DNA from: an uncultured Bacilli bacterium
GTDB taxonomy: Bacteria > Bacillota_I > Bacilli_A > RF39 > UBA660
Direction of reading: 5' to 3'
Length of the DNA: 64,000 nt
Assembly: GCA_947625505.1 (NCBI GenBank)
Contig: CANQON010000006.1
Span: 3,903 to 67,902, forward strand
Shown: positions 6,597 through 36,761 of the stretch, piece by piece
Layout: each line of letters begins with the position of its first letter
Position numbering within the stretch: the first letter of the stretch is position 1
Program-made: the position numbers and the translations under genes
Notes under the pieces: generated by a model
What the model was told of the DNA's origin: nothing
The model's database searches: none
The model's input: the letters and a program-made list of their open reading frames with translations, nothing else

Positions 6597-8687
6597 ATGT
6601 TAGAAGAATTAAATGATAGACAACAAGAAGCAGTAAAGACAACGGAAGGTCCTCTTCTTGTTATTGCTGGAGCAGGTAGTGGTAAAACAAAAGTACTTAC
6701 AACACGTATTGCTTATTTAATAGAACATTTAGGAATTAGTCCTACATCTATTTTAGCGATTACTTTTACTAATAAAGCAGCTAAAGAGATGAAAGAAAGA
6801 GTTGTTGGTCTTTTAGGGCCTGTAGCGTATCAAATTCAAATATCAACTTTTCACTCATTTGGTTTAAGTGTTATACGTGATTATTATGATAAATTAGGAT
6901 ATAAAAGAGAGTTTACTATTTTAGATAGTGATGATTCATTATTAACAGTTAAAAGAATCCTTAAGGATATGAATTTAGATCCTAAGGTATATAATCCTAA
7001 AAATATAAGAAATCGTATTAGTAGTGCGAAAAATGAAATGATGAGTCCTGATGAGTTAGATCGTTTTAGTGCTTCTGAATTTGATAATATTGTTGTAGAT
7101 GTTTACCGTGAATATCAGAAAAGATTAGAAAATAATAATTCTTTAGATTTTGATGATTTATTATTAAAACCAATTGAGTTATTTAAAGATAATTTAGATA
7201 TATTAAAGAAGTATCAAGAACAGTTTAAGTATATTCTTATTGATGAATATCAAGATACTAATGAAGTACAATATAATTTAACAAAGATGTTAAGTAAGAA
7301 ATATAAAAATATTTGTGTCGTAGGTGATGAGTCACAATCTATCTATGCTTTTAGGGGATCTAATTATCGTAATATATTGAATTTTGAACATGATTATAAA
7401 GATGCAAAAATAATATTGTTAGAACAAAATTATCGTAGTACGAAAACGATTCTTAATGCTGCTAATGACGTCATAAAAAATAATAAGCAGAGAAAAGATA
7501 AAAAGTTATGGACAGAAAATGAGACAGGTGATAAGATTACTTATCATAAAAGTTTAGATGAAAAAGACGAGGCTTTATATGTAACAAGAGAGATTAATAA
7601 ATTATTAGGTGATGGAGCAAGTTTAAATGATATCGTAGTTTTATATCGTACTAATGCTCAATCACGTAATATAGAAGAAGCTATGCTTAAAGATAATATA
7701 CCTTATAAAGTTATTGGTAGTTTCTATTTCTACAATCGAAAAGAAATTAAGGATTTGATTTCTTATCTTAAATTAATTTATAATAATGATGATGATATCA
7801 GTTTAAATCGTATCATTAATTCTCCTAAAAGAGGGATAGGAAATAAGACAATGGAACAACTAGCTATTAAAGCATCAATTAATGGTACTAGTTTATTTGA
7901 AGCAATAGATAGTGGAAAAGAGTTAAAGTTTAAAGAACTTATTTTATCCTTAAAAAAGGAAAGTGAATTGCTATCTTTAACAGAATTAGTTGATGCTGTT
8001 TTAGATAAGAGTGGGTTAAAAGCTGAATTAGAGAGTGAAGGTACTTTAGAAGCTGAAGCTCGTCTTGAAAACTTAGAGGAATTTAAATCTATTACAAAGA
8101 ATTATGAAGAGCGTAATGGAATAATATCTTTAAGTGATTTTCTTGAAGAAATTAGTTTAGTAGCGGATATTGAAGAACATAAAGATAGTACAGATGTTGT
8201 AACGCTTATGACAATTCATTCAGCTAAAGGTTTAGAGTTTAAATATGTCTTTGTTATTGGTATGGAAGAAGGAATATTCCCACATAGTCGTTCTTTACTA
8301 TCTAATGATGAATTAGAAGAAGAAAGAAGATTATGTTATGTAGCAATAACAAGAGCTAAAAAGAAACTATGGCTTGTAAGCGCTAAAAGACGTATGATTT
8401 TTGGTTTAGATAGTATGAATCCTATTAGTCGTTTTGTTAAAGAAATTAGTGATGAATACTTAGATACAGATGAAGAAATAAATGTCTTTAGTAATAAAGG
8501 ACATACTAATTATCATGATAATGTTGATGATAGTATCGAATATAAGCCTGGTGATAAGGTTATACACACATCTTTTGGAGAAGGTGTTGTTATAAGTGTT
8601 GAAAAGTCTATTTTAACAGTGGCTTTTCCACATCCTGTAGGAATTAAAACAATAATGAAAGGACATAAAAGTATTAGAAAGGTATAG
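6597..8687 (+). CDS. pcrA: ATP-dependent DNA helicase PcrA/UvrD
   Basis: AGAGSGKT, TFTNKAA, IDEYQDTN, VGDESQSIYAFRG, TIHSAKGLEF, EEERRLCYVAITRA; ATG 6597 after AGGAGG. Confidence 0.95.
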   Translation: MLEELNDRQQEAVKTTEGPLLVIAGAGSGKTKVLTTRIAYLIEHLGISPTSILAITFTNKAAKEMKERVVGLLGPVAYQIQISTFHSFGLSVIRDYYDKLGYKREFTILDSDDSLLTVKRILKDMNLDPKVYNPKNIRNRISSAKNEMMSPDELDRFSASEFDNIVVDVYREYQKRLENNNSLDFDDLLLKPIELFKDNLDILKKYQEQFKYILIDEYQDTNEVQYNLTKMLSKKYKNICVVGDESQSIYAFRGSNYRNILNFEHDYKDAKIILLEQNYRSTKTILNAANDVIKNNKQRKDKKLWTENETGDKITYHKSLDEKDEALYVTREINKLLGDGASLNDIVVLYRTNAQSRNIEEAMLKDNIPYKVIGSFYFYNRKEIKDLISYLKLIYNNDDDISLNRIINSPKRGIGNKTMEQLAIKASINGTSLFEAIDSGKELKFKELILSLKKESELLSLTELVDAVLDKSGLKAELESEGTLEAEARLENLEEFKSITKNYEERNGIISLSDFLEEISLVADIEEHKDSTDVVTLMTIHSAKGLEFKYVFVIGMEEGIFPHSRSLLSNDELEEERRLCYVAITRAKKKLWLVSAKRRMIFGLDSMNPISRFVKEISDEYLDTDEEINVFSNKGHTNYHDNVDDSIEYKPGDKVIHTSFGEGVVISVEKSILTVAFPHPVGIKTIMKGHKSIRKV

Positions 8688-8695
8688 GTGATTTT

Positions 8696-8866
8696 ATGTA
8701 TAATTTAGTTAATGTTTTAGATATTATTAAGACTTTAGAAGAATGGTCAGATAAATTAAAGGCATGGATCTTTGATAACTATAATAATCCTGTACTATGG
8801 GTTGGAATAGTTGTAGTAGGTGTTTTATTCTTTAAAGTAATGTTTAGCACACTTAATAAAGACTAG
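8696..8866 (+). CDS. Small membrane protein, 56 aa (not in ORF track)
   Basis: SD AGGTGA then ATG; MYNLVNVLDIIKTLEEWSDKLKAWIFDNYNNPVLWVGIVVVGVLFFKVMFSTLNKD; terminator begins at its stop. Confidence 0.7.
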   Translation: MYNLVNVLDIIKTLEEWSDKLKAWIFDNYNNPVLWVGIVVVGVLFFKVMFSTLNKD

Positions 8867-8885
8867 ATTTATATCTAGTCTTTTT
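8861..8885 (+). terminator. Rho-independent terminator
   Basis: GACTAGAT-TTAT-ATCTAGTC then TTTTT. Confidence 0.75.
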
Positions 8886-8913
8886 GTTATAATAAACCTT
8901 GGATGGTGATAGT

Positions 8914-9807
8914 GTGGATTTAATAATAGGTTCTCATGTATCTTTTTCAAAAGATAAACAAATGTTAGGTAGTGTAATTGAAGCATTAAGTTATAAGGCT
9001 AATACTTTTATGTTTTATACAGGTGCTCCTCAAAATACTAATCGTTCTCTTATTGATGATAAATTAACTGAGCTTGCTCATAATTTGATGTTAAATGAAA
9101 ATATTAATATTAAAGATGTAATTGTGCATGCTCCATACATAATTAATTTAGCTAATGATAAAAATTATGATTTTAATATTAAATTTTTAAAAGAAGAAAT
9201 TAAGCGTGTTGAAAAACTAGGTGTATCTAAATTAGTTTTACATCCAGGTAGTCATGTAGGTTTAGGTATTGAAGCAGGTATTAATAATATTATTAAATCT
9301 TTAAATGATTGTTTAACACCTGATACTAAAGTTATCATATGTCTTGAAACAATGGCAGGTAAAGGTAGTGAATTAGGATGTACTTTTGAACAATTAAAGA
9401 CTATTATTGATGGTGTTAAAGAAAAAGATAAGATAGGCGTTTGCTTAGATACTTGTCATATAAGTGATGCAGGATATGACTTAAATAACTTTGATAAAGT
9501 TTTAGAAGAGTTTGATAATATTATTGGTTTAGATAAATTAAAGGTATTACATATTAATGATAGTAAGAATATTTGTGGCGCTAAAAAAGATCGCCATGAA
9601 AATATAGGGTATGGACAAATAGGCTTCGATAATTTATTAAAAATTTTATATCATGATAAATTAAAAGATATTCCTAAAATATTAGAAACACCTTATGTAG
9701 ATACAGAACTAGGTAAACTAGCTCCATATAAGTTTGAAATTCAAATGATTAGAGATAAAAAATTTAATGATCATTTAATTAATGATATAGTTTTGGATAA
9801 TAAATAG
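8914..9807 (+). CDS. nfo: Endonuclease IV (AP endonuclease family 2)
   Basis: IGSHVS, VHAPYIINLA, LHPGSH, LETMAGKG, CLDTCH, HINDSK, DRHENIG, ILETP zinc ligands. Confidence 0.95.
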   Translation: MDLIIGSHVSFSKDKQMLGSVIEALSYKANTFMFYTGAPQNTNRSLIDDKLTELAHNLMLNENINIKDVIVHAPYIINLANDKNYDFNIKFLKEEIKRVEKLGVSKLVLHPGSHVGLGIEAGINNIIKSLNDCLTPDTKVIICLETMAGKGSELGCTFEQLKTIIDGVKEKDKIGVCLDTCHISDAGYDLNNFDKVLEEFDNIIGLDKLKVLHINDSKNICGAKKDRHENIGYGQIGFDNLLKILYHDKLKDIPKILETPYVDTELGKLAPYKFEIQMIRDKKFNDHLINDIVLDNK

Positions 9808-10033
9808 TATATAATTCATATAGCTTGTTATAGGCTTTAGTATTTAATACTTGCTTAGCTTGATTTAAATAATAATGAGGATTATTTAAAATATTTTCGT
9901 AATTATTTTTAATGTTATTATAAAGGTAATCAATTTCTTGATTATTTAAAGATACATTATTATTTTGAGCAAACATAACTATATCATTTTTTGTTAAATG
10001 ATTAATATAAGATTTTATAATTTTTTCTTTCAT
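9779..10033 (-). CDS. DUF2624/YqfT-like small protein
   Basis: 84 aa, convergent with nfo as in the Bacillus nfo-yqfT arrangement; INHLTKNDIVMFAQNNNVSL pattern. Confidence 0.6.
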   Translation of the reverse strand: MKEKIIKSYINHLTKNDIVMFAQNNNVSLNNQEIDYLYNNIKNNYENILNNPHYYLNQAKQVLNTKAYNKLYELYTIYYPKLYH

Positions 10034-10080
10034 ATAATAATATTATATGTTAGATACTGATAAAAATTACAGGAGGTAAT

Positions 10081-12153
10081 ATGAAGAAGAAAAAAAAGAC
10101 ACACTATTATAAAAAATATACAGCTAATGATATTACTACTGTAATTAATAAAAGATATAAGTCATTAAGTTTCATTATTATTGTTTTATTTTCTATTTTA
10201 ACCTTATCTTTATTTTATGTTCAGATTATTAAGCATGGATATTATGCAGTTAAATTAGATGAATTAAGTAAAGTTATTGTAGAAGGAGATAGTGCTCCTA
10301 GAGGCAGAATATATGATCGTAATGGCAAGATAATTGTTGATAATAAAGCTGTTAAAACAATCTATTATAAAAAAGAATCAGGTATTACATCTAAAGAAGA
10401 AATCATTATGGCATATAAGATAGCTGAAAATATTGATATTGATTATAGTAAACTATCTGATTATAATTTAAAGAAATTTTGGGTTATTAATAATCCATTA
10501 TCAGCTGATAAAAAAATAACCGATGAAGAAAGAAAAAAGCTAGATGAAAGAAAAATTACTAATAGTGATATAGAAGAGTATAAAATAGATCGTGTAACAG
10601 AAAAAGATTTAGCAGATTATAAAGATATTGATAAAGAAGCTGCTTATATTTATTATTTAATGAATAATGGCTATTACTATGCTGAAAAAACAATTAAGAA
10701 TAAAGATGTAACAGATGAAGAATATGCTTTTATAGCAGCTAATGAAGAAGAATTTAAAGGTTTTGGTACTAAATTAGATTGGGAAAGATACTATCCATAT
10801 GGTGATACTTTTAGAACTATTTTAGGGAATGTATCAACTAGTAGTAGTGGACTTCCCTTAGAACTTAAAGACTCTTATTTAGCTATTGGTTATAGTTTAT
10901 CTGATCGTGTAGGTACAAGTTATTTAGAATATCAATATGAAAGTATTTTAAGAGGTACTAAAACGAAATATACTTTAGATAATGATGGTAATTATGTTAT
11001 CTTAGAGGAAGGCCAAAGAGGTAATGATATAGTATTAAGTATCGATATTGAACTACAAAAAGAAGTAGAAAAAATAGTTGAACAAGAACTTTTATATACT
11101 AAACAAAAAGAAAAATATACACAATACTTTGATAGAGCCTTTGTTGTCATAAGTGATCCTAATACAGGTGAGATTTTAGCAATGGTAGGTAAACAAATAG
11201 GTAAAGAAAATGGTGAATATAAGATATATGATTATTCGGTAGGTGTTATTAATGCTTCTATAACACCAGGTTCTTCCGTTAAAGCAGCATCCCATATGGT
11301 AGGATATACAACAGGTAGTTTAAAAATAGGGGAAGTAAGAAGTGATGCTTGTATTAAAATAGCCGCAACACCTCTAAAATGTTCTTTAGTACGTTATGGA
11401 AAATTAAACGATCTTAATGCTTTAGCGTATTCATCAAATACTTATCAGTATCAAACAGCTATAAAAGTAGGTAAAGGTACTTATCGTTATAATAAACCTT
11501 TAAAATTAGATCCTAATGCTTTTAATATTTATCGTAATATGTTTGCTCAGTTTGGATTAGGGGTTAAAACAGGTATTGATTTACCTAATGAAAGATTAGG
11601 TTATATGGGATCAGGAACAGCTCCAGGTTTACTACTTGATTTCTCTATTGGACAATATGATAACTATACACCAATTCAAATGTCTCAATATATCAATACG
11701 GTTGCTAATAACGGATCACGTATGAAACCAACATTATTAAAGAAAGTGTATGCTCCAACTAAAGATGGCTTAACGGATTTAATTTATACTAATACGCCAA
11801 TCGTACTTAATAAAGTAAATGCAGAAGATAAATATTTTAGTCGTGTTAAAGAAGGATTAAGATTAGTATTTACTAAAGGAACAGGTAAAGGATATATAAA
11901 TAGTAAGAATAAGCCTGCAGGTAAAACAGGTACTAGTCAAAGTTTTGTTGATACCAATAATGATGGAAAAATAGATACAGAAACTCTTTCTACAAGTTTA
12001 GTTGCTTATGCTCCATATGATAATCCTAAGGTAACATTTACGATTATTACACCTAATGTTAGTAAAGGAAGTGCTACCTATAATCAAATGTCTAAGGTAA
12101 ATAAACGTCTAACCCAAAAAATTTCTAAAAAATACTTTGAAATTTATAAATAA
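10081..12153 (+). CDS. Class B penicillin-binding protein (PbpA/PBP2-like transpeptidase)
   Basis: TM anchor, PRGRIYDRNG, SxxK (PGSSVK), SxN (YSSNT), KTG (GKTGT). Confidence 0.92.
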   Translation: MKKKKKTHYYKKYTANDITTVINKRYKSLSFIIIVLFSILTLSLFYVQIIKHGYYAVKLDELSKVIVEGDSAPRGRIYDRNGKIIVDNKAVKTIYYKKESGITSKEEIIMAYKIAENIDIDYSKLSDYNLKKFWVINNPLSADKKITDEERKKLDERKITNSDIEEYKIDRVTEKDLADYKDIDKEAAYIYYLMNNGYYYAEKTIKNKDVTDEEYAFIAANEEEFKGFGTKLDWERYYPYGDTFRTILGNVSTSSSGLPLELKDSYLAIGYSLSDRVGTSYLEYQYESILRGTKTKYTLDNDGNYVILEEGQRGNDIVLSIDIELQKEVEKIVEQELLYTKQKEKYTQYFDRAFVVISDPNTGEILAMVGKQIGKENGEYKIYDYSVGVINASITPGSSVKAASHMVGYTTGSLKIGEVRSDACIKIAATPLKCSLVRYGKLNDLNALAYSSNTYQYQTAIKVGKGTYRYNKPLKLDPNAFNIYRNMFAQFGLGVKTGIDLPNERLGYMGSGTAPGLLLDFSIGQYDNYTPIQMSQYINTVANNGSRMKPTLLKKVYAPTKDGLTDLIYTNTPIVLNKVNAEDKYFSRVKEGLRLVFTKGTGKGYINSKNKPAGKTGTSQSFVDTNNDGKIDTETLSTSLVAYAPYDNPKVTFTIITPNVSKGSATYNQMSKVNKRLTQKISKKYFEIYK

Positions 12154-27358: not shown

Positions 27359-29359
<2,001 letters not shown>

Positions 29360-29399
29360 TATGATTATATTTAGAACATGATGGGTGTGTGGAAGTTTT

Positions 29400-31613
29400 A
29401 TGATAGAAGAATGGAATGGTTTTAAAGGTACTAAATGGCAACAAACGATTGATGTTGAAGACTTTATTATCAATAATTATAAAGAGTATACAGGAAGTTC
29501 AGAATTCTTAAAAGGAATAAGTAGAAAAACAAGTCGCGTTTGGAGTAGATGTCAAAAACTATTAGATAAAGAGGATATAACCAAAGTATTAGATGTAGAA
29601 ACTAGTTATTTTTCTAGTATTAATGGTTTTGAACAAGGATACATTGATAAAAAAAATGAAGTAATCGTTGGATTACAAACTGATGAACCTTTAAAACAAT
29701 TTATTAATCCCTTTGTAGCTTTAGATTCTTCTTTAGAAGCTTCTAAAAATTATGGATATCGTTTTGATCGTAATATGGAAGAACATTTTAGAGAGTTCGC
29801 TATATCACATGAAGAAGCTACAGAAGCATCTTATACTAAAGAGATAAAAAAATATCGTGAAGTTCATTTATTAGAGGGATTACCTGATAATTATGGAAGG
29901 GGATTTATTGTCTCTGATTTTAGACGTTTACCTTTATATGGAGCTGATTATTTAATAGCGCGTAAAGAACATGATTTAGATCGTTTAAGACGTGATATTA
30001 ATTATTCTATTGTACGTACAAGAGAAGAAGTAATAAAACAAATTGATGCTTTAAAGAAGATAAAAGATATGGCTAAGCATTACGATATTGATATATCAAG
30101 GCCTGCTAAAAATACTAAAGAAGCTATTCAATGGTTATATTTTGCTTATTTAGGAGCTAGTAAAGATACTTGCAGTGCTTCTTTACCAGTAGGAAATAAT
30201 ACACCATTTTTAGATATTTATATTAATAGAGATTTAGAAAATGGTAGTATTAAAGAAGAAGAAGTGCAAGAATTAATTGATCAATTTATTATTAAATTAC
30301 GTTTAATAAGATTTTTGCATACACCTGAATATAAAAATTATTTTCCAGGTAAGAATCCTTTGATTACTGAAGTAATTGGGGGATTATATAATGGTAAATC
30401 GCTTATTACTCAAACAGCATATCGCTTCTTAAACTCCTTAGAAAATTTAGGAACATATCCTGTACCTAGTTTTGCTATTTTATGGAGTTCGAAATTACCA
30501 ATTAATTTTAAAAGATATTGTGCTAAAACTATGTTAAGTCATCATACTATTGAGTTATTAAATGCTGATAAGTTAGATAGTTTTAATTATGCTGTTACGG
30601 GTTTAGCAGGTTTATCTAAGATAGGTAAACAAATTGATTACTATGGTGGTAGTTGTAATTTACCTAAAGCTTTATTATATGCTATTAATGAAGGTAAAGA
30701 TGAAATAACAGGAGAACTTGTTATTCCTGATATAGAACCTATTAAGGATGATGTTTTAAATTATCCAATAGTTGTTAAAAACTTTGTTAAAGTATTAAGT
30801 AAATTAATATGTATTTATGCTGATGCTTTAAATATTGTGCATTATATGCATGATAAGTATGCTTATGAAGGATCTTTAATGGCATTTAATGATACAGTAG
30901 TTGAAAGATATATTACTTTTGGTATAGCAGGATTATCTACTTTAGTAGATTCTTTATGTGCTATTAGATATGCTAAAGTCCATGTAAATCGTGATGATAA
31001 AGGTTTAACTACGGATTTTAATATTGATGGTTCTTTCCCTAAATTTGGTAATAATCAAGATGAAGCTGATCGTATTGCTAGTGATATTATTAAATTATTT
31101 AATAAAGAATTACGTAATCATCATATGTATCGAAATGCTAAAATAAAAGTTGGTGTTGAAACAGTAGGATTAAATATGGTATATGGTAATAATACAGGAT
31201 CAACACCTAATGGACGCTTTAAAGGAGTACCTTATGCTATAGGAGCATGTCCTGTAGGAAATGCCGATACTAAAGGACTTTTATCTTCTTTAAAGAGTGT
31301 TATGAAATTACCAAAAGAACTATGTACTAATGGTATTATTACGACAGTTAATATTAGTGGTAATGCTTTAGGTAGTAAAAAGAGCGAAAGAGCAGAGAAT
31401 ATTATAGGCTTATTAGATAGCTACTTTAATCAAAATGGTAGTCAGTTAGAAATAAATATCATTGATAAAAGTACTATTACTTCAGCTATAAAAGATGATC
31501 GTAATTATACTAATTTAGTTCTTCATAATGGGGGATTTGCTGTAAGATTTAAAGATATAGATAATAATTTATCTAATGATTTAGCTGAAAGAACATTTCA
31601 TGAGGTATTATAA
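29400..31613 (+). CDS. Pyruvate formate-lyase (PflB) homolog lacking catalytic residues
   Basis: PFL scaffold motifs IDVEDFI..NY, IVGLQTDEPLK, GLPDNYGRG, EAIQWLYFAYL, HYMHDKYAYE, GSTPNGR, RTFH; Cys-Cys replaced by Gly-Leu and RVSGY by HNGGF. Confidence 0.85.
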   Translation: MIEEWNGFKGTKWQQTIDVEDFIINNYKEYTGSSEFLKGISRKTSRVWSRCQKLLDKEDITKVLDVETSYFSSINGFEQGYIDKKNEVIVGLQTDEPLKQFINPFVALDSSLEASKNYGYRFDRNMEEHFREFAISHEEATEASYTKEIKKYREVHLLEGLPDNYGRGFIVSDFRRLPLYGADYLIARKEHDLDRLRRDINYSIVRTREEVIKQIDALKKIKDMAKHYDIDISRPAKNTKEAIQWLYFAYLGASKDTCSASLPVGNNTPFLDIYINRDLENGSIKEEEVQELIDQFIIKLRLIRFLHTPEYKNYFPGKNPLITEVIGGLYNGKSLITQTAYRFLNSLENLGTYPVPSFAILWSSKLPINFKRYCAKTMLSHHTIELLNADKLDSFNYAVTGLAGLSKIGKQIDYYGGSCNLPKALLYAINEGKDEITGELVIPDIEPIKDDVLNYPIVVKNFVKVLSKLICIYADALNIVHYMHDKYAYEGSLMAFNDTVVERYITFGIAGLSTLVDSLCAIRYAKVHVNRDDKGLTTDFNIDGSFPKFGNNQDEADRIASDIIKLFNKELRNHHMYRNAKIKVGVETVGLNMVYGNNTGSTPNGRFKGVPYAIGACPVGNADTKGLLSSLKSVMKLPKELCTNGIITTVNISGNALGSKKSERAENIIGLLDSYFNQNGSQLEINIIDKSTITSAIKDDRNYTNLVLHNGGFAVRFKDIDNNLSNDLAERTFHEVL

Positions 31614-32206
31614 TGAAAGGTACTATTAGTTCAATTAATCCTATGAGTTTTGATTCAGGCCCAGGAATACGTGTTAGTGTTGAATTAAATAATACTAATG
31701 AATTAAGTTTAACACCTAATGAAATGGTAGATCGTATTCGTAAGTTTCGTCCTTATATAGGACCTGATGGTGGAGGAGTTACTTTCTATGGAAATCTTTT
31801 TGAACAAAAGGATTTCTTAAAAGAAACTTGTTTAATATCTCATAAAGCAGGTATTAATACATGTATTATAACTAATGGTATAGATTATGTAGACGATGAA
31901 GCTCTATTTAAACATATAGATTTAGTTATTTTAGATATAATAAGTTTGCCAATGTATAATTATAATGATATAGCTATTGAAGATCTTATGAATATCAATC
32001 GTTTTCTTAATAAATTAGAAGAAAAACAAATTAATTTATGGATTAAGCAAAAAATATATAAAGATAAAAATGATAATGAAGAATATATTAATGCCTTAAA
32101 AAAATTTTTAAATATGTTTCATAATATAAATGATATTGAATTAATAGGTATTGATGTAGATTCTAATCGATTAAATTATTTAGAAAGTTTATTAAAGGAG
32201 GTATAG
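31613..32206 (+). CDS. PFL-activating enzyme (PflA) homolog lacking the radical-SAM motif
   Basis: MKGTISSI..SFDSGPGIR, GGGVTF, GINTCIITNG, DLVILDI; no CxxxCxxC and no GGE; TAATG coupling to the upstream gene. Confidence 0.8.
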   Translation: MKGTISSINPMSFDSGPGIRVSVELNNTNELSLTPNEMVDRIRKFRPYIGPDGGGVTFYGNLFEQKDFLKETCLISHKAGINTCIITNGIDYVDDEALFKHIDLVILDIISLPMYNYNDIAIEDLMNINRFLNKLEEKQINLWIKQKIYKDKNDNEEYINALKKFLNMFHNINDIELIGIDVDSNRLNYLESLLKEV

Positions 32207-32207
32207 T

Positions 32208-33335
32208 GTGAAAAGATATCGTTTTATTGCTATCTTATATTTTGTTATCATGGCATATTTTGTTTTAACAAGTAAAAGTTTAACAATGTACGCTACCACA
32301 TTAGATTATGTAGGATGTGGATCAGCTAGTGGAATACCTAAACCTATACCTCAATTAACAACAGTAGCGTATACTTTATTAATTGTTGGAACACCTCTTA
32401 TTTTAATAACTTTTTCTATTGTTGCTTTGATTAAAGCTATATCTGGTGGTAAAGCTGATGAAATATTAAAAGCTAAAACTAAATTATTTAAAAAATTTAT
32501 GGCAGCAGGAATAATCTTTTTATTATCAGCTATTGTTCAATTTGTTATAGGTAGAGTAACGACAACGGTAGATGATGAAAGTACAGTAACAGCTTGTCTT
32601 CAATGCTTTCTATACTATAGTGATCAGAACTGTTATAAATCAAGTTCAGGTAATGGTGTAACAGAAGATACTACTAATCCTACCTATGATGATAAAGCCC
32701 AACCTACAACAGGGAATCGTGATAAAACACCTTCAGGTAATGTAAGTAATGGAACTATTAAGAAAGGTTCTAAAACTATTTTAGTAGGAGATTCAAGAAC
32801 AGTAGGAATTTGCCAACTATCTTCCTCTGGTTATTATTCAGGAGCATGCCGTGATTACAATGCTGTATGTCAAGGTGGTATGGGATATAATTGGTTTAAA
32901 GCAACAGGGGTAGCAGGAGTAAATGGTTTATTAGAGCAAAACGCTAATACAAGACATAATATTGTTATTTTACTAGGTGTAAATGATATATCTAATACTG
33001 AATATTGGGCTGATAATGCTGTCAAAGAATATATGGGAATTATAACTGAGCATGCTAATGGAGATTGGAAAAATCAAAATATTATTTTTGCTTCTATTAC
33101 TCCAATTGGGGCAGAACAAACTGGAGGGAAGTGGCCTGTAAGTCAAACAAATATTAATTACTTTAATACCCAAATACGTTCTAAAATAGCTTCATCAGGA
33201 TTAAGTAATGTAAGTTATTGTGATATTAGTACAGGAATAGACTTAAATGGTAAATTTGCAGGAGATAATTTACATTATACAGGAGCAGGATATACAACTA
33301 TGTATAACCAAATAGTTAATAAGTGCTTAAAGTAG
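32208..33335 (+). CDS. Membrane protein: pilin-like two-TM hairpin fused to SGNH/GDSL hydrolase
   Basis: N-terminal anchor, TM-KAISGGKADEILKAK-TM, S/T/G linker, then GDS (LVGDSRT), G, GxND (LGVND) and DxxH (DNLH) blocks. Confidence 0.7.
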   Translation: MKRYRFIAILYFVIMAYFVLTSKSLTMYATTLDYVGCGSASGIPKPIPQLTTVAYTLLIVGTPLILITFSIVALIKAISGGKADEILKAKTKLFKKFMAAGIIFLLSAIVQFVIGRVTTTVDDESTVTACLQCFLYYSDQNCYKSSSGNGVTEDTTNPTYDDKAQPTTGNRDKTPSGNVSNGTIKKGSKTILVGDSRTVGICQLSSSGYYSGACRDYNAVCQGGMGYNWFKATGVAGVNGLLEQNANTRHNIVILLGVNDISNTEYWADNAVKEYMGIITEHANGDWKNQNIIFASITPIGAEQTGGKWPVSQTNINYFNTQIRSKIASSGLSNVSYCDISTGIDLNGKFAGDNLHYTGAGYTTMYNQIVNKCLK

Positions 33336-33355
33336 CAAGAAATTGCTACTTTTTT
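33329..33355 (+). terminator. Rho-independent terminator
   Basis: AAAGTAGCAA-GAAA-TTGCTACTTT plus T run. Confidence 0.8.
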
Positions 33356-33389
33356 ATTTCTAACATGGTATAATAAAGTAGGTGATAAT

Positions 33390-36300
33390 ATGAAGAAGAC
33401 AATAACAGTTGATGGTAATGAAGCTTGTAGTTATACATCATATATGTTTACGGAGGTAGCAGGAATATATCCTATTACACCTTCTAGTCCTATGGCAGAA
33501 CATGTCGATGAGATGAGTTCTAAAGCAGTAAATTTATTTAATAATCCTGTTAAAGTAGTAGAAATGCAAAGTGAAGCAGGAGCTGCTGGCTTTATTCATG
33601 GTTCATTAAAAGCAGGATGCTTAACAACTACTTTTACAGCTAGTCAAGGATTATTACTTATGATACCTAATATGTATAAAATAGCAGGAGAGATGCTTCC
33701 AGGGGTTATTCATGTGGCAGCTCGTGCTTTATCTACACATGCTTTAAGTATCTTTGGTGATCATCAAGATATATATGCTTGTCGTATGACAGGTTTTGCG
33801 ATGTTAGCATCTTCATCAGTTCAAGATGCTGCTTATTTAAGTGCAGTCGCACATTTATCTAGTATTAAAGCTAGTCTTCCTTTTATGCATTTCTTTGATG
33901 GCTTTAGAACTAGTCATGAAATTCAAAAGATAGAAGTATTGCAAGCAAGTGATTATCAAGATATGCTAGATTATGAAGCTCTAGATAGATTCCGTCGTCG
34001 TGCTTTAAATCCTCATCATCCAAAAACGCATGGTACAGCGCAAAATGAAGATATTTATTTTCAAACAACGGAAGCTCGTAATATTTATTATGATAGATTA
34101 CCTGATATCGTTAATGATTATATGGAAAAAATAAATACGAAAGCAGGTACTGATTATAAACCATTTAATTATTATGGTAGTGAGACAGCATCTAAAGTTA
34201 TTGTTGCGATGGGTTCAGTATGTGAAACAATTAAAGAAGTAATTGATGCTAAAAAAGATGTAGGATTAATAGAAGTACATTTATATCGTCCATTTAGCTC
34301 TAAATATTTATTAAATGTATTACCTAGTACAGTTAAAAAAATAGCTGTATTAGATCGTACTAAAGAAGCAGGTAGTAATGGAGAACCTTTATATTTAGAT
34401 ATCGTTAATGCTTTAAAAGGTAAAAATATTGAAATAGTAGGTGGAAGATATGGTTTAGCTAGTAAGAATACAACACCTAGTGATATTAATGCGGTATATG
34501 AGATGTTAGATAATCCTAAAAATAACTTTACTTTAGGTATTGTTGATGATGTAACACATCTTAGTTTAGAACCTATAAATATTGAAACAAAAAAATGCAA
34601 TGAGTGGTTATTCTATGGATATGGTTCTGATGGTATGGTAGGAGCTTCTAAATCCATTATTAAATTAATTGGTGATAATACCGATGACTATGTACAAGGA
34701 TATTTCCAATATGATTCTAAAAAATCAGGAGGAGTAACTTGTAGTCATTTAAGATTTAGTACAGATAAGATAAGATCAACTTATTATGTAATGAAACCTT
34801 CATTAGTTGTTATAACAAAAGATAGTTATTTAGAAGATTATGATCTATTAAGTGATCTTGATGATAGCGCTACTGTGATAATCAATACTATTCATAATGA
34901 AGAAAAAATAAATAAAATGTTAAATAACCATCTAAAGAAATTATTATTAGATAAACATGCAAAAGTATATTTAATTAATGCTTATGATTTAGCTGAACAA
35001 GTAGGATTAAAAGGTAAAATTAGTACGATTATGGAAAGCACTATTATGTATTTAACTAGTGTTATGCCTTACGATGAAGCATTAAAATATATTGAAGATG
35101 GTATTAAGAAAAAGTTTGCTAAAAAAGGCGAAAGTGTCGTTAATGCTAATCTTGAAGCTATTAAACTTGCTACTACTAACTTAAAAGAAATAACAATTGA
35201 TAATAATTTTAGTGATAAGGAAGAAGAAAAAACATCATTAGTTAAAACGATTATGAAAAGGAAAGGTGAGTCTTTAAAAACATCTGATTTTGTAAGACGT
35301 GCTGATGGAGTTTTTGAAAGTGGAACTAGTGTTTTAGAAAAGAGATATATTAGTGATGTTGTACCTGCATGGATAAGTAGTAATTGTTCTAATTGTAATC
35401 AATGTTCATTATATTGTCCACATGGTGTTATAAGACCTTTCATATTGGATGAAGAAGAATATAATAATGCTCCAGAAGAAATAAAGAAACGTGCTGTTAA
35501 GGCTATAGGTATGGATTATTATTATATTATTAGTGCTTCAGTAGCTGATTGTACAGGATGTGGTGTATGTGTAAGTGTATGTCCTGGTATGAAAGGCAAT
35601 AAAGCTCTTACAATGGATAAAATAAATCCTAAAGAACAAGAAGTATTTAATTATCTTGATAAGAATATTAAACCTAAAGATGTAGGTAATATCTTTACTG
35701 TTAAAAATAGTCAATTTAATAAACCTAAATTTGCTTTTTCAGGTGCTTGTGCAGGATGTGGAGAAACAGCTTATATTAAATTGTTAACACAATTATTTGG
35801 GGAACATTTAATTATTAGTAATGCGACAGGATGTTCTTCTATCTACGGAGGAAGTGCTCCTACAACACCTTATACTATTCCATGGGCTAGTAGCTTATTT
35901 GAAGATAATGCAGAATATGGATATGGTATGCTAATAGCTAACAATGTTATACGTACGCGTATAGCAGGTATTATGGAAAAGAATATGGATAATGAAAATA
36001 GTGAACTATTTAAAGAATGGCTAGATAATTCTAATAGTTATGAACATACAAAGCATGTTTATGATAACTTAACAGACAATATACCAGAAGAATTAAAAGA
36101 ATTAAAAGACTATATTACTGTTCGTAATATCTGGTGTATTGGAGGCGATGGATGGGCTTATGATATTGGTTATGGAGGAATAGACCATGTCTTAGCTAGT
36201 CGTGATAATATTAAAATATTAGTCCTTGATAGCCAAGTATATTCTAATACAGGAGGACAATCATCTAAAGCTAGCCCTAAAGGCGCTATTGCATCCTTTG

Positions 36301-36761
36301 CTTCAATGGGTAAGAAAACAAATAAAAAGGATTTAGCTCGTATCGCTATGTCTTATCCAGATGTTTATGTAGCCCAAGTATCATTAGGAGCTAATCCTAT
36401 GCAAGTAGTAAAAGCTTTTAAAGAAGCTAATGAATATGATGGTCCTGCTATTATTATAGCTTATACTCCATGTATTTCTCATGGCATTAAGGGTGGAATG
36501 GAACATAGTGTTGATATGGAAAAATTAGCTACTAATTCAGGATATTTCTTAACCTTTAGAAGACATCCAATAGATGGATTTACTTTAGATAGTAAAAATG
36601 TTAATTTTGACTTATATGAAGAATTCTTAAATAGTCAAACAAGATATAATATGTTAAAAGTAATTAATCCTGATAAAGCTAATGATTTATTACAAGCTAA
36701 TAAGGATAATGCTATTAAGACTTATAATTACTATGAAGAATTAGGAAAAAGTAATCAATAG
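33390..36761 (+). CDS. nifJ: Pyruvate:ferredoxin/flavodoxin oxidoreductase (PFOR)
   Basis: DGNEA, YPITPSS, EMQSEAGAAG, FFDGFRTSHE, two ferredoxin CxxCxxCxxxCP motifs, GACAGCGE, GGDGWAYDIG, YSNTGGQ. Confidence 0.97.
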   Translation: MKKTITVDGNEACSYTSYMFTEVAGIYPITPSSPMAEHVDEMSSKAVNLFNNPVKVVEMQSEAGAAGFIHGSLKAGCLTTTFTASQGLLLMIPNMYKIAGEMLPGVIHVAARALSTHALSIFGDHQDIYACRMTGFAMLASSSVQDAAYLSAVAHLSSIKASLPFMHFFDGFRTSHEIQKIEVLQASDYQDMLDYEALDRFRRRALNPHHPKTHGTAQNEDIYFQTTEARNIYYDRLPDIVNDYMEKINTKAGTDYKPFNYYGSETASKVIVAMGSVCETIKEVIDAKKDVGLIEVHLYRPFSSKYLLNVLPSTVKKIAVLDRTKEAGSNGEPLYLDIVNALKGKNIEIVGGRYGLASKNTTPSDINAVYEMLDNPKNNFTLGIVDDVTHLSLEPINIETKKCNEWLFYGYGSDGMVGASKSIIKLIGDNTDDYVQGYFQYDSKKSGGVTCSHLRFSTDKIRSTYYVMKPSLVVITKDSYLEDYDLLSDLDDSATVIINTIHNEEKINKMLNNHLKKLLLDKHAKVYLINAYDLAEQVGLKGKISTIMESTIMYLTSVMPYDEALKYIEDGIKKKFAKKGESVVNANLEAIKLATTNLKEITIDNNFSDKEEEKTSLVKTIMKRKGESLKTSDFVRRADGVFESGTSVLEKRYISDVVPAWISSNCSNCNQCSLYCPHGVIRPFILDEEEYNNAPEEIKKRAVKAIGMDYYYIISASVADCTGCGVCVSVCPGMKGNKALTMDKINPKEQEVFNYLDKNIKPKDVGNIFTVKNSQFNKPKFAFSGACAGCGETAYIKLLTQLFGEHLIISNATGCSSIYGGSAPTTPYTIPWASSLFEDNAEYGYGMLIANNVIRTRIAGIMEKNMDNENSELFKEWLDNSNSYEHTKHVYDNLTDNIPEELKELKDYITVRNIWCIGGDGWAYDIGYGGIDHVLASRDNIKILVLDSQVYSNTGGQSSKASPKGAIASFASMGKKTNKKDLARIAMSYPDVYVAQVSLGANPMQVVKAFKEANEYDGPAIIIAYTPCISHGIKGGMEHSVDMEKLATNSGYFLTFRRHPIDGFTLDSKNVNFDLYEEFLNSQTRYNMLKVINPDKANDLLQANKDNAIKTYNYYEELGKSNQ

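Follow-up and report, generated by a model that had tools for sequence, protein, structure and literature searches.

The locus considered here raises the question of what a protein built as a full-length pyruvate formate-lyase (PFL) can be for once the residues that make PFL an enzyme have been replaced. The gene lies in a 64,000-nucleotide stretch of contig CANQON010000006.1 (the window), which belongs to the genome of an uncultured member of the Bacilli (here G000; 1.66 Mb, 59 contigs, 94.85% complete). A first-pass annotation of the window had described this gene, referred to here as dPFL, as a single unit in which PFL catalysis was lost while the fold was kept. The part of that description concerning dPFL holds, but it missed that the adjacent gene encodes a disabled PFL activase, referred to here as dPflA. 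Taking a pseudoenzyme to be an enzyme homologue that has lost its catalytic residues and is retained by selection, the data suggest that dPFL and dPflA are probably a selected pseudoenzyme pair that performs no radical chemistry and now has a non-radical binding or structural role. The features of the pair are the following.

29400..31613, plus strand, dPFL, a 737-aa PFL homologue without catalytic and substrate-binding residues (unbroken open reading frame, ORF)
29904..29906, plus strand, Phe169 at the Arg176 position (ygrgFiv vs ygrgRii)
30360..30362, plus strand, Leu321 at the Trp333 position (gknpLite vs gdpiWate)
30600..30605, plus strand, Gly401-Leu402 at Cys418-Cys419, the Cys loop (yavtGLag vs yaiaCCvs)
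30651..30653, plus strand, Ser418 at the Arg435 position (yyggScnl vs ffgaRanl)
31524..31538, plus strand, glycyl loop HNGGF (lHNGGFav vs iRVSGYav)
31613..32206, plus strand, dPflA, a 197-aa PflA-like protein with the CX3CX2C loop deleted (TIGR02493 match, alignment and model)

The 2.2-kb frame of dPFL is unbroken over 737 codons, as had been reported. A GTG at 29385, five codons upstream of the ATG at 29400, offers an alternative start; the database relatives are 730-742 aa long and their start matches the ATG at 29400. The protein has the PFL domain architecture over its full length (Pfam PF02901, PFL-like, residues 16-596, 2.3e-137; PF01228, Gly_radical, residues 614-717, 1.7e-17) and matches profile positions 1-744 of TIGR01255, with a score below the curated cut-off of that PFL equivalog model (782.8 vs 994.2 bits). 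It aligns over residues 4-735 with the E. coli PflB chain 1h16_A (phmmer, E 5.6e-180), and this alignment confirmed every substitution that the first-pass annotation had listed, including those at 30600-30605 and 31524-31538; the Asn145 position also differs, being Glu138 in dPFL. The claim of a changed glycyl loop needs refinement: RVSGY has indeed become HNGGF, but the radical glycine itself is retained (Gly712, equivalent to Gly734, nucleotides 31533-31535) and only the neighbouring residues differ. According to the accessible text of a 2026 review, Cys418 and Cys419 of PFL are both catalytically essential, Arg176 and Arg435 hydrogen-bond pyruvate, and Asn145 and Gln146 stabilise the adenine of coenzyme A (CoA) (PMC13450708). 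The AlphaFold2 model of dPFL has a mean predicted local distance difference test score (pLDDT) of 83.5 and a predicted template modelling score (pTM) of 0.87, with residues 65-101 low. When it was compared with known structures using Foldseek, the template modelling score (TM) to E. coli PFL (1cm5/2pfl) was 0.94 at 40% identity, the top match being 1cm5, and the protein is thus predicted to adopt the ten-stranded barrel fold of glycyl radical enzymes. The C-terminal 75 residues also give a weak match to GrcA models. Both the residue losses and the model indicate that dPFL is without the capacity for PFL chemistry while its fold is kept, in agreement with the first-pass annotation. As a separate observation, PDB entries 38la and 38lb align to dPFL only up to about residue 660.

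Genome searches covered 41 related genomes, 19 of which make up genus g1 together with the window's own genome, and motif classes were assigned by reading 42 translated PFL-like matches from the related genomes. A PFL-like match was found in all 19 searched members of the genus as well as in G000. A copy without the cysteine pair is present in 20 of the 20 genomes and a true PFL was found in 15 of the 20, so that in this genus the true enzyme is the less faithfully retained of the two. The dead copies are of two types. The A-type (the window and seven other genomes) has Phe, Tyr or His for Arg176, no Trp333, a Cys loop of the form x-[T/N]-G-x, YYGGx in the Arg435 region and a retained glycine. 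The B-type (12 genomes) has Lys or Glu for Arg176, keeps the Trp, reads G-[S/C/A] in the Cys loop, replaces Arg435 with Ser and has the glycyl loop RYAEC or RLSGC. The true PFLs of the genus have YAIACCVS, FFGAR and RVSGY and are encoded at a second locus.

Residue counts were taken from de-duplicated rows (43 A-type, 23 B-type and 71 true PFLs). Among the true PFLs, Asn145, Arg176, Trp333, Cys418, Cys419 and Arg435 are each present in 71 of 71 rows and Gly734 in 70, with one gap. Since the same positions are invariant in the 71 true PFLs, the substitutions in dPFL are not due to chance. The Arg176 position in the A-type is Phe in 34 rows, Tyr in 7 and His in 2, Arg435 is replaced in all 43, Gly stands at 401 in 40, no row has Cys at 402, and the cysteine pair is found in none (0/43). 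The Gly712 position is Gly in every A-type row (43/43).

The neighbouring protein is as altered as dPFL is. The stop codon of dPFL and the ATG of dPflA have one base in common (TAATG), and a GAGG lies eight bases before this ATG. dPflA scores 86.1 bits against TIGR02493, the PflA model, whose cut-off is 231.75, and matches profile positions 41-196 of 235. Its 197 residues contain no CX3CX2C motif or Cys triad. In 8 of 8 A-type genomes the PflA-like ORF behind dPFL is without the motif, while the PflA ORFs at 21 of 21 true PFL loci have it, and the alignment with true PflA shows a clean deletion of the iron-sulfur loop (16-17 residues) in every dPflA row. The GGE motif, which in activases binds S-adenosylmethionine (SAM), is altered, with GGVTFYGN-L in the window protein versus GGVTFSGGEP in the true PflA rows, and the C-terminal PYHxxG segment is lost. 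The protein is still strongly conserved at GPGIR, DRIRKFRPY, GGVTF and HKAGINTCI. Its AlphaFold2 model (pLDDT 93.4) has the PFL activase 3cb8_A as best PDB match (TM 0.88, root-mean-square deviation 2.4, 19% identity), and dPflA is predicted to keep the partial TIM-barrel fold of that enzyme. A complex prediction for dPFL residues 611-737 with dPflA gave a score of 0.00 in a run without controls and carries no weight either way.

The A- and B-type copies form one clade (support of 100 in the Shimodaira-Hasegawa-like approximate likelihood-ratio test, SH-aLRT). With wider outgroups, the clade is joined by a metagenomic protein without the cysteine pair, P0186, as sister to A plus B (support 99), and this group falls beside the family's true PFLs, where the enclosing branches have support of only 89-91. 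This fits an origin of dPFL by duplication of the lineage's own pflBA followed by vertical inheritance. The A- and B-type copies are orthologues; both fill the slot between ligA and the gene for pyruvate:ferredoxin oxidoreductase (PFOR). They differ in that dPflA follows dPFL in all eight A-type genomes and at none of 11 B-type loci.

Outside the genus, the pair was not recovered. The best 120 database clusters comprise 41 A-type, 19 B-type and 60 true PFLs. Genome and metagenome scans gave 160 further PFL loci. Both the cysteine pair and the glycyl loop are present at 154 of them, three have the pair with a cut or split C-terminus, one has no ORF and two are without the pair; in the tree these two coincide with the dead PFLs of G018 and G017, both members of the genus. 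When metagenomes were scanned with the A-type alignment, 80 loci were recovered at 41-52% identity; all those checked were true PFLs, and the scan added no A-type DNA to the set used for dN/dS. Only ordinary formate acetyltransferase clusters were returned by the ESM Atlas. When one genome for each of 150 other genera of the family was searched with dPflA, the ORFs recovered were at most 40% identical and nearly all of true-PflA length. As far as searched, the dPFL-dPflA pair appears limited to one uncultured genus. Contigs of four DNA runs matched only as short pieces. Sequencing runs from a second study (X5 and X6) contain near-identical dPFL pieces, one of which spans 30699-30949 with 0 differences. 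It should also be noted that, in the same class, the true PFL is apparently split in three genomes (G026:C1:213301-215805, G034:C1:632029-634337 and G032:C47:1970-4375), each with an ORF matching query residues 1-661 and a nearby ORF of 83-86 aa matching the glycyl-radical domain.

The retention of both genes was assessed from ratios of nonsynonymous to synonymous divergence (dN/dS) in 11 genome pairs. The Nei-Gojobori (NG86) ratio was 0.04-0.34 for dPFL and 0.16-0.38 for dPflA, next to 0.06-0.25 for true PFL, 0.02-0.34 for LigA and 0.04-0.16 for PFOR, values that are rough and to that extent count against leaning on them, since dS was 0.85-2.1, near saturation, in most pairs (YN00 gave nan except for one LigA comparison). 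When the 291 sites conserved in at least 95% of true PFLs were followed into the dead copies, the A-type was found to keep 155 and the B-type 216; the A-type has 17 fixed to a new residue and 43 variable. The re-fixed sites include Glu138, Phe169, Gly401, Tyr414, Gly417 and Glu684, as well as Ser261, Pro263 and Asn266 in the loop holding Ala272/Ala273, and Lys583, Gly585 and Ser588, which adjoin Leu604/Ile606. Judging from the E. coli crystal structures, these segments probably line the PFL active site. These data indicate that dPFL and dPflA are retained by purifying selection, and the check that the first-pass annotation had proposed, for orthologues with the same kind of substitutions and for selection, came out positive.

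How the pair might be used has to be weighed against its surroundings, which in the window are as follows.

27377..29359, plus strand, LigA, NAD-dependent DNA ligase, the conserved upstream neighbour (domain/profile match)
32208..33335, plus strand, a membrane-anchored protein of 375 aa whose C-terminal domain is SGNH/GDSL-like; the gene starts 1 nt downstream of the dPflA stop
33329..33352, plus strand, a terminator-like hairpin and T run that ends the dPFL-dPflA-SGNH unit
33390..36761, plus strand, PFOR, the conserved downstream neighbour, with an extended -10-like site just upstream

The alternative that survives best, although it is unlikely, is that dPFL is a partner at the pyruvate node, binding a metabolite of that node or PFOR itself and tuning the sole remaining route of pyruvate oxidation; regulation of the neighbouring PFOR was among the roles that the first-pass annotation suggested. 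The dPFL gene is directly upstream of PFOR on the same strand at 16 of 18 fetched loci, the two misses being contig ends, and only about 100 bp separate the two genes in 4 B-type genomes. PFOR is also the sole enzyme for pyruvate oxidation found in the window, in a genome where no PFL is present. However, ligA is equally conserved as a neighbour (17 of 18 loci, the miss again a contig end), and thus the adjacency may reflect no more than synteny. A promoter-like site and a ribosome-binding site of its own are present at PFOR, both locus types that were read have a terminator-like hairpin or T run ahead of it, and the slot between the two genes takes unrelated insertions that range from 0 to 2.2 kb. 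Moreover, dPFL no longer has the arginines that bind pyruvate or the Asn that contacts the CoA adenine. No terminator-like site was seen between ligA and dPFL.

A second alternative is that dPFL regulates a true PFL, as the first-pass annotation had suggested, or serves as its heterodimer partner or as a sink for its activase. PFL is a homodimer (PMC12338860, accessible text), and dead and true PFL occur together in 15 of the 20 genomes of the genus. However, G000 contains one PFL-like gene only, and none that scores above the TIGR01255 cut-off. Besides dPflA its only activase-like gene is NrdG, beside NrdD, so that NrdDG is the only other glycyl-radical system and a cognate radical-SAM activase was not found there. 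In G007, the closest relative with a true PFL, pflB-pflA is flanked by genes for a sigma factor and a pseudouridine synthase; in G000 these two flanking genes are 3 nt apart (C2:135935-136734 and 136738-137627). Because the flanking genes adjoin on an intact contig, the true pflB-pflA operon has been cleanly lost from G000 and is not hidden in an assembly gap, with dPFL-dPflA left intact. Neither true PFL nor true PflA was found in four more genomes that are 88-95% complete, one of which (G012) has a 28-residue N-terminal PFL-like fragment that may mark a contig end. The dPFL-dPflA pair is thus independent of true PFL, and since G000 has lost true pflBA, a regulatory role towards it is improbable. 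With neither a working PFL nor a PFL activase found in G000, its pyruvate oxidation would rest on PFOR.

G000 also has a short (211 aa), stand-alone channel of the FNT family beside a phospholipase-D-like gene (G000:C4:32848-33429). The idea that dPFL gates a FocA-like channel was considered and set aside, as nothing connects this channel to dPFL.

Several observations weigh against a selected role for the pair, and some of them are what a functionless relic in slow decay would produce. The A-type path between G019 and G004 is 0.77 for dPFL versus 0.12 for true PFL in the same pair, and the B-type path between G013 and G005 is 0.17 versus 0.07. Since dead-clade branches exceed in length the true-PFL branches of the same genome pairs, the constraint on dPFL is real but relaxed. 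The positions of Cys419, Arg435, Leu604 and Ile606 (402, 418, 587 and 589) are variable in the A-type, and such variation where pyruvate is contacted makes it less likely that a conserved new ligand binds precisely there. The placement of the re-fixed sites around the active site is approximate. Of the 23 B-type rows, 11 have Glu in place of the radical Gly. The activase becomes progressively shorter across lineages, with 122-145 aa left in some of the A-type, and is then lost, being absent from the B-type orthologues; the activase may therefore be in the course of being lost and not essential. Even the attachment of dPflA to the retained glycine is in question. In the PFL activase, Asp16 and Asn38 anchor the Gly734 loop (PMC9326890, modelling, accessible text). 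In dPflA, Ser, Asn or Ala mostly takes the place of Asp16, and the deleted loop includes Asn38; on account of these two changes canonical Gly-loop binding by dPflA cannot be assumed. With regard to expression, no RNA run was listed that covers window positions 27400-36700. A relic is nevertheless quite improbable. There are no internal stops inside any listed PFL match in the 20 genomes of the genus, and 43 A-type and 23 B-type proteins are full length in spite of an A+T-rich genome. The dN/dS range, the 155 of 291 PFL-invariant sites still invariant and the 17 that were re-fixed all argue for continued use, dPFL has outlasted the true enzyme, and confident fold predictions were obtained for dPFL and dPflA alike.

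A further alternative is that dPFL and dPflA form a unit with the membrane-anchored SGNH hydrolase, for example as the cytoplasmic part of a surface system that handles acyl or acetyl groups, the three together making up a fast-changing exchangeable cassette. The dPFL and dPflA genes are joined by a 1-nt overlap and dPflA and the SGNH gene by a 1-nt gap, the ribosome-binding sites lie inside the preceding genes, and a single terminator-like hairpin follows the third gene. This arrangement suggests that dPFL and dPflA are translationally coupled in the window's lineage. The 375-aa SGNH protein has a hydrophobic leader, two more hydrophobic spans, a linker rich in Ser, Thr, Pro and Asn, and the SGNH/GDSL-like domain, and in all A-type genomes whose contig continues (7 of 7, the window and 6 loci) the gene after dPflA encodes its N-terminal membrane module, in G018 without an SGNH domain. 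An exchangeable cassette is suggested by the comparison of G019 with G006. These genomes are 97-99% identical over 7 kb upstream, including ligA (dS 0.11), and drop to about 79% from the first dPFL bases (dS 0.91), with only 66% left across dPflA and the gene for the membrane protein, the drop being located at L129 (G019) 6983-10400 vs L131 (G006); two other stretches of 10-12 kb are 90-96% identical. Because the synonymous divergence in the cassette exceeds that of the flank, one of the two genomes must, on these alignments, have acquired its cassette as an intact allele from a diverged source, a reading that concerns a single genome pair.

The SGNH unit has little probability all the same. 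The module (window 32208-32777), which matches nothing significant in Pfam or NCBIfam, has eight more copies in G000 with other C-terminal domains, and the searches run found no PFL-like neighbour for them. The slot itself is variable, holding one to three module-bearing genes in the A-type (three in tandem in G019 and G006), and most B-type loci are without such a neighbour: among the 11 examined, 4 have a spacer of about 100 bp, 4 a lipoprotein-like ORF and 3 other content. None of dPFL, dPflA, the SGNH protein or the upstream ORF matched a defence-system model. The SGNH protein is thus probably a passenger of a variable slot and not a partner of the pair.

Two side observations concern the same slot and module. 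The nine-member module family of G000 shares the leader, a conserved Cys-Gly motif and the hydrophobic spans, and further members lie at G000:C3:81593-86207 and C3:106301-108029. In L134 (G016), the gap between dPFL and PFOR contains a 116-codon frame like the C-terminal domain of the first slot membrane protein of G008, and it looks like a remnant of that membrane-protein gene.

That dPFL is still a radical enzyme, using its retained Gly with another Cys and another activase, is hardly credible: Gly712 is universal in the A-type, NrdG is present in G000 and the C418A/C419A mutant of E. coli PflB still accepts a glycyl radical, but that double mutant is catalytically inactive (PMC12338860, accessible text), the cognate dPflA is without its cluster loop, the Cys loop of dPFL has no Cys, and no Cys elsewhere is both specific to the dead clade and invariant in the 43 A-type rows. 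The Cys419 of dPFL (in GGSC), which the first-pass annotation had named as a possible replacement, does not fill that part, being found in 29 of 71 true PFLs and in only 33 of 43 A-type rows. Cys642 is conserved in A-type, B-type and true PFLs alike, and Cys at 713 occurs in 15 of 43 A-type rows.

The reading of dPFL and dPflA as a selected, non-radical pseudoenzyme pair therefore remains the preferred one, and a possible course of events can be proposed. The lineage's own pyruvate formate-lyase would have been duplicated, and one copy would have lost the thiyl-forming cysteines and the pyruvate arginines and had its CoA-adenine site altered. The most likely result would be a protein that uses the PFL barrel to bind a ligand or as a structural element. 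Its former active-site region may have been partly refitted and then fixed (Pro263, Asn266, Tyr414, Gly417, Lys583, Gly585, Glu684), while the positions that once touched pyruvate were released to vary. In the A-type lineage, the dead activase may have been kept as a binding partner or a folding helper. A bolder version goes further and is possible, though decidedly tentative: a PFL was turned into a non-radical protein with a new selected function and its activase was converted along with it in one lineage, which would make this the first natural pair of a pseudo-glycyl-radical enzyme and a pseudo-activase; PFLs without the cysteine pair would then have arisen more than once, and the protein of the giant virus TetV-1 discussed below would be no formate-lyase.

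This last point relates to the wider set of PFL homologues. When a profile search was made of 1.84 billion cluster representatives, the whole A-type group amounted to one representative. Of the other 149 representatives listed, fragments included, 41 depart from the canonical residue at one or more of the six key positions (pairwise BLAST), and a multiple alignment of the longer ones contains several full-size proteins without the cysteine pair. Among these is the TetV-1 'pyruvate formate-lyase' (P0189, YP_010783456.1, TetV_428), which shares 44% identity with a true PFL across 734 residues. Its cysteine pair is replaced by Tyr-Asp (Cys418-Cys419), Arg435 by Tyr and Trp333 by Asn, with Arg176 and the Gly kept; its motifs are YAISYDAS, QYHGGYCNI and FCVSGNYI, the glycyl loop being changed. 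The accessible text of a preprint reports that this gene is transcribed constitutively throughout infection (bioRxiv 10.1101/2024.08.30.610430), and it is treated as a working fermentation gene there and in another paper, likewise in its accessible text; 'cysteine' is not a word of the preprint, and neither text comments on the residue changes. A scan of viral contigs with the TetV-1 protein returned no relative.

Further PFL-like representatives without the cysteine pair are P0186, P0201, P0203, P0205, P0213 and P0233. A group of 590-643 aa (P0275-P0324) is also without the pair, and a group with 21-24% identity is without the radical domain altogether. For the other homologues of this kind whose source was looked up, each is a single sequence, found on a contig of 15-83 kb or, in one case, in a eukaryotic transcript. 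Apart from P0186, these homologues look independent of the dead clade and are mostly single sequences. Treating them as a family was rejected, P0201 having no relative above 47% identity among its best 120. Four for which a source name was read are called pyruvate formate-lyase or formate C-acetyltransferase, and the dead-clade proteins themselves carry no source name.

Pseudoenzymes are a known kind of protein, and the one described here derives from a well-known enzyme-activase system. What appears to be new is a full-size homologue of a glycyl radical enzyme kept by selection without the radical machinery, together with a gutted radical-SAM partner. If this is true, the PFL fold has a second, non-catalytic life, and the pair offers a natural system for the roles of the PFL body and the activase scaffold apart from chemistry. 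It also follows that metabolic reconstructions of these gut bacteria and of TetV-1 may credit them with formate production that they probably cannot perform. The first-pass annotation knew of no described family of dead PFLs, and the literature agrees as far as it was covered: no description of a natural inactive homologue of PFL or of another glycyl radical enzyme was found in full-text literature, a scope outside which most subscription papers and supplements fall, and the accessible text of the 2026 review makes no mention of pseudo- or inactive PFL homologues (PMC13450708).

When the pair is set beside known systems, the closest comparison is E. coli PflB/PflA (PDB 1h16/2pfl; 3cb8), with which it shares the two-gene order, full-length homology and the same predicted folds, as well as the radical glycine of PFL and the GPGIR motif of the activase. 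Unlike that system, dPFL replaces Cys418, Cys419, Arg176, Arg435, Trp333 and Asn145, dPflA has neither the CX3CX2C loop (including Asn38) nor the GGE motif nor the C-terminal segment, and both proteins fall below the curated cut-offs. The C418A/C419A mutant of E. coli PflB (1cm5) resembles dPFL in having the full PFL fold without the cysteine pair and, according to the accessible text of PMC12338860, in being inactive; however, it is man-made, keeps the substrate arginines and can have its radical installed by an intact PflA, whereas dPFL has lost these residues too and stands beside an activase incapable of making radicals. The TetV-1 protein is likewise a full-length homologue without the cysteine pair that keeps the Gly, but it belongs to a giant virus of a green alga, retains Arg176 and has an independent origin in the tree, at a position without starred support. 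GrcA/YfiD is, like dPFL, derived from PFL and without a catalytic site of its own. However, it is a radical carrier of 127 aa that needs an intact activase and a PFL body (PMC13450708, accessible text), whereas dPFL keeps the whole 737-aa body.

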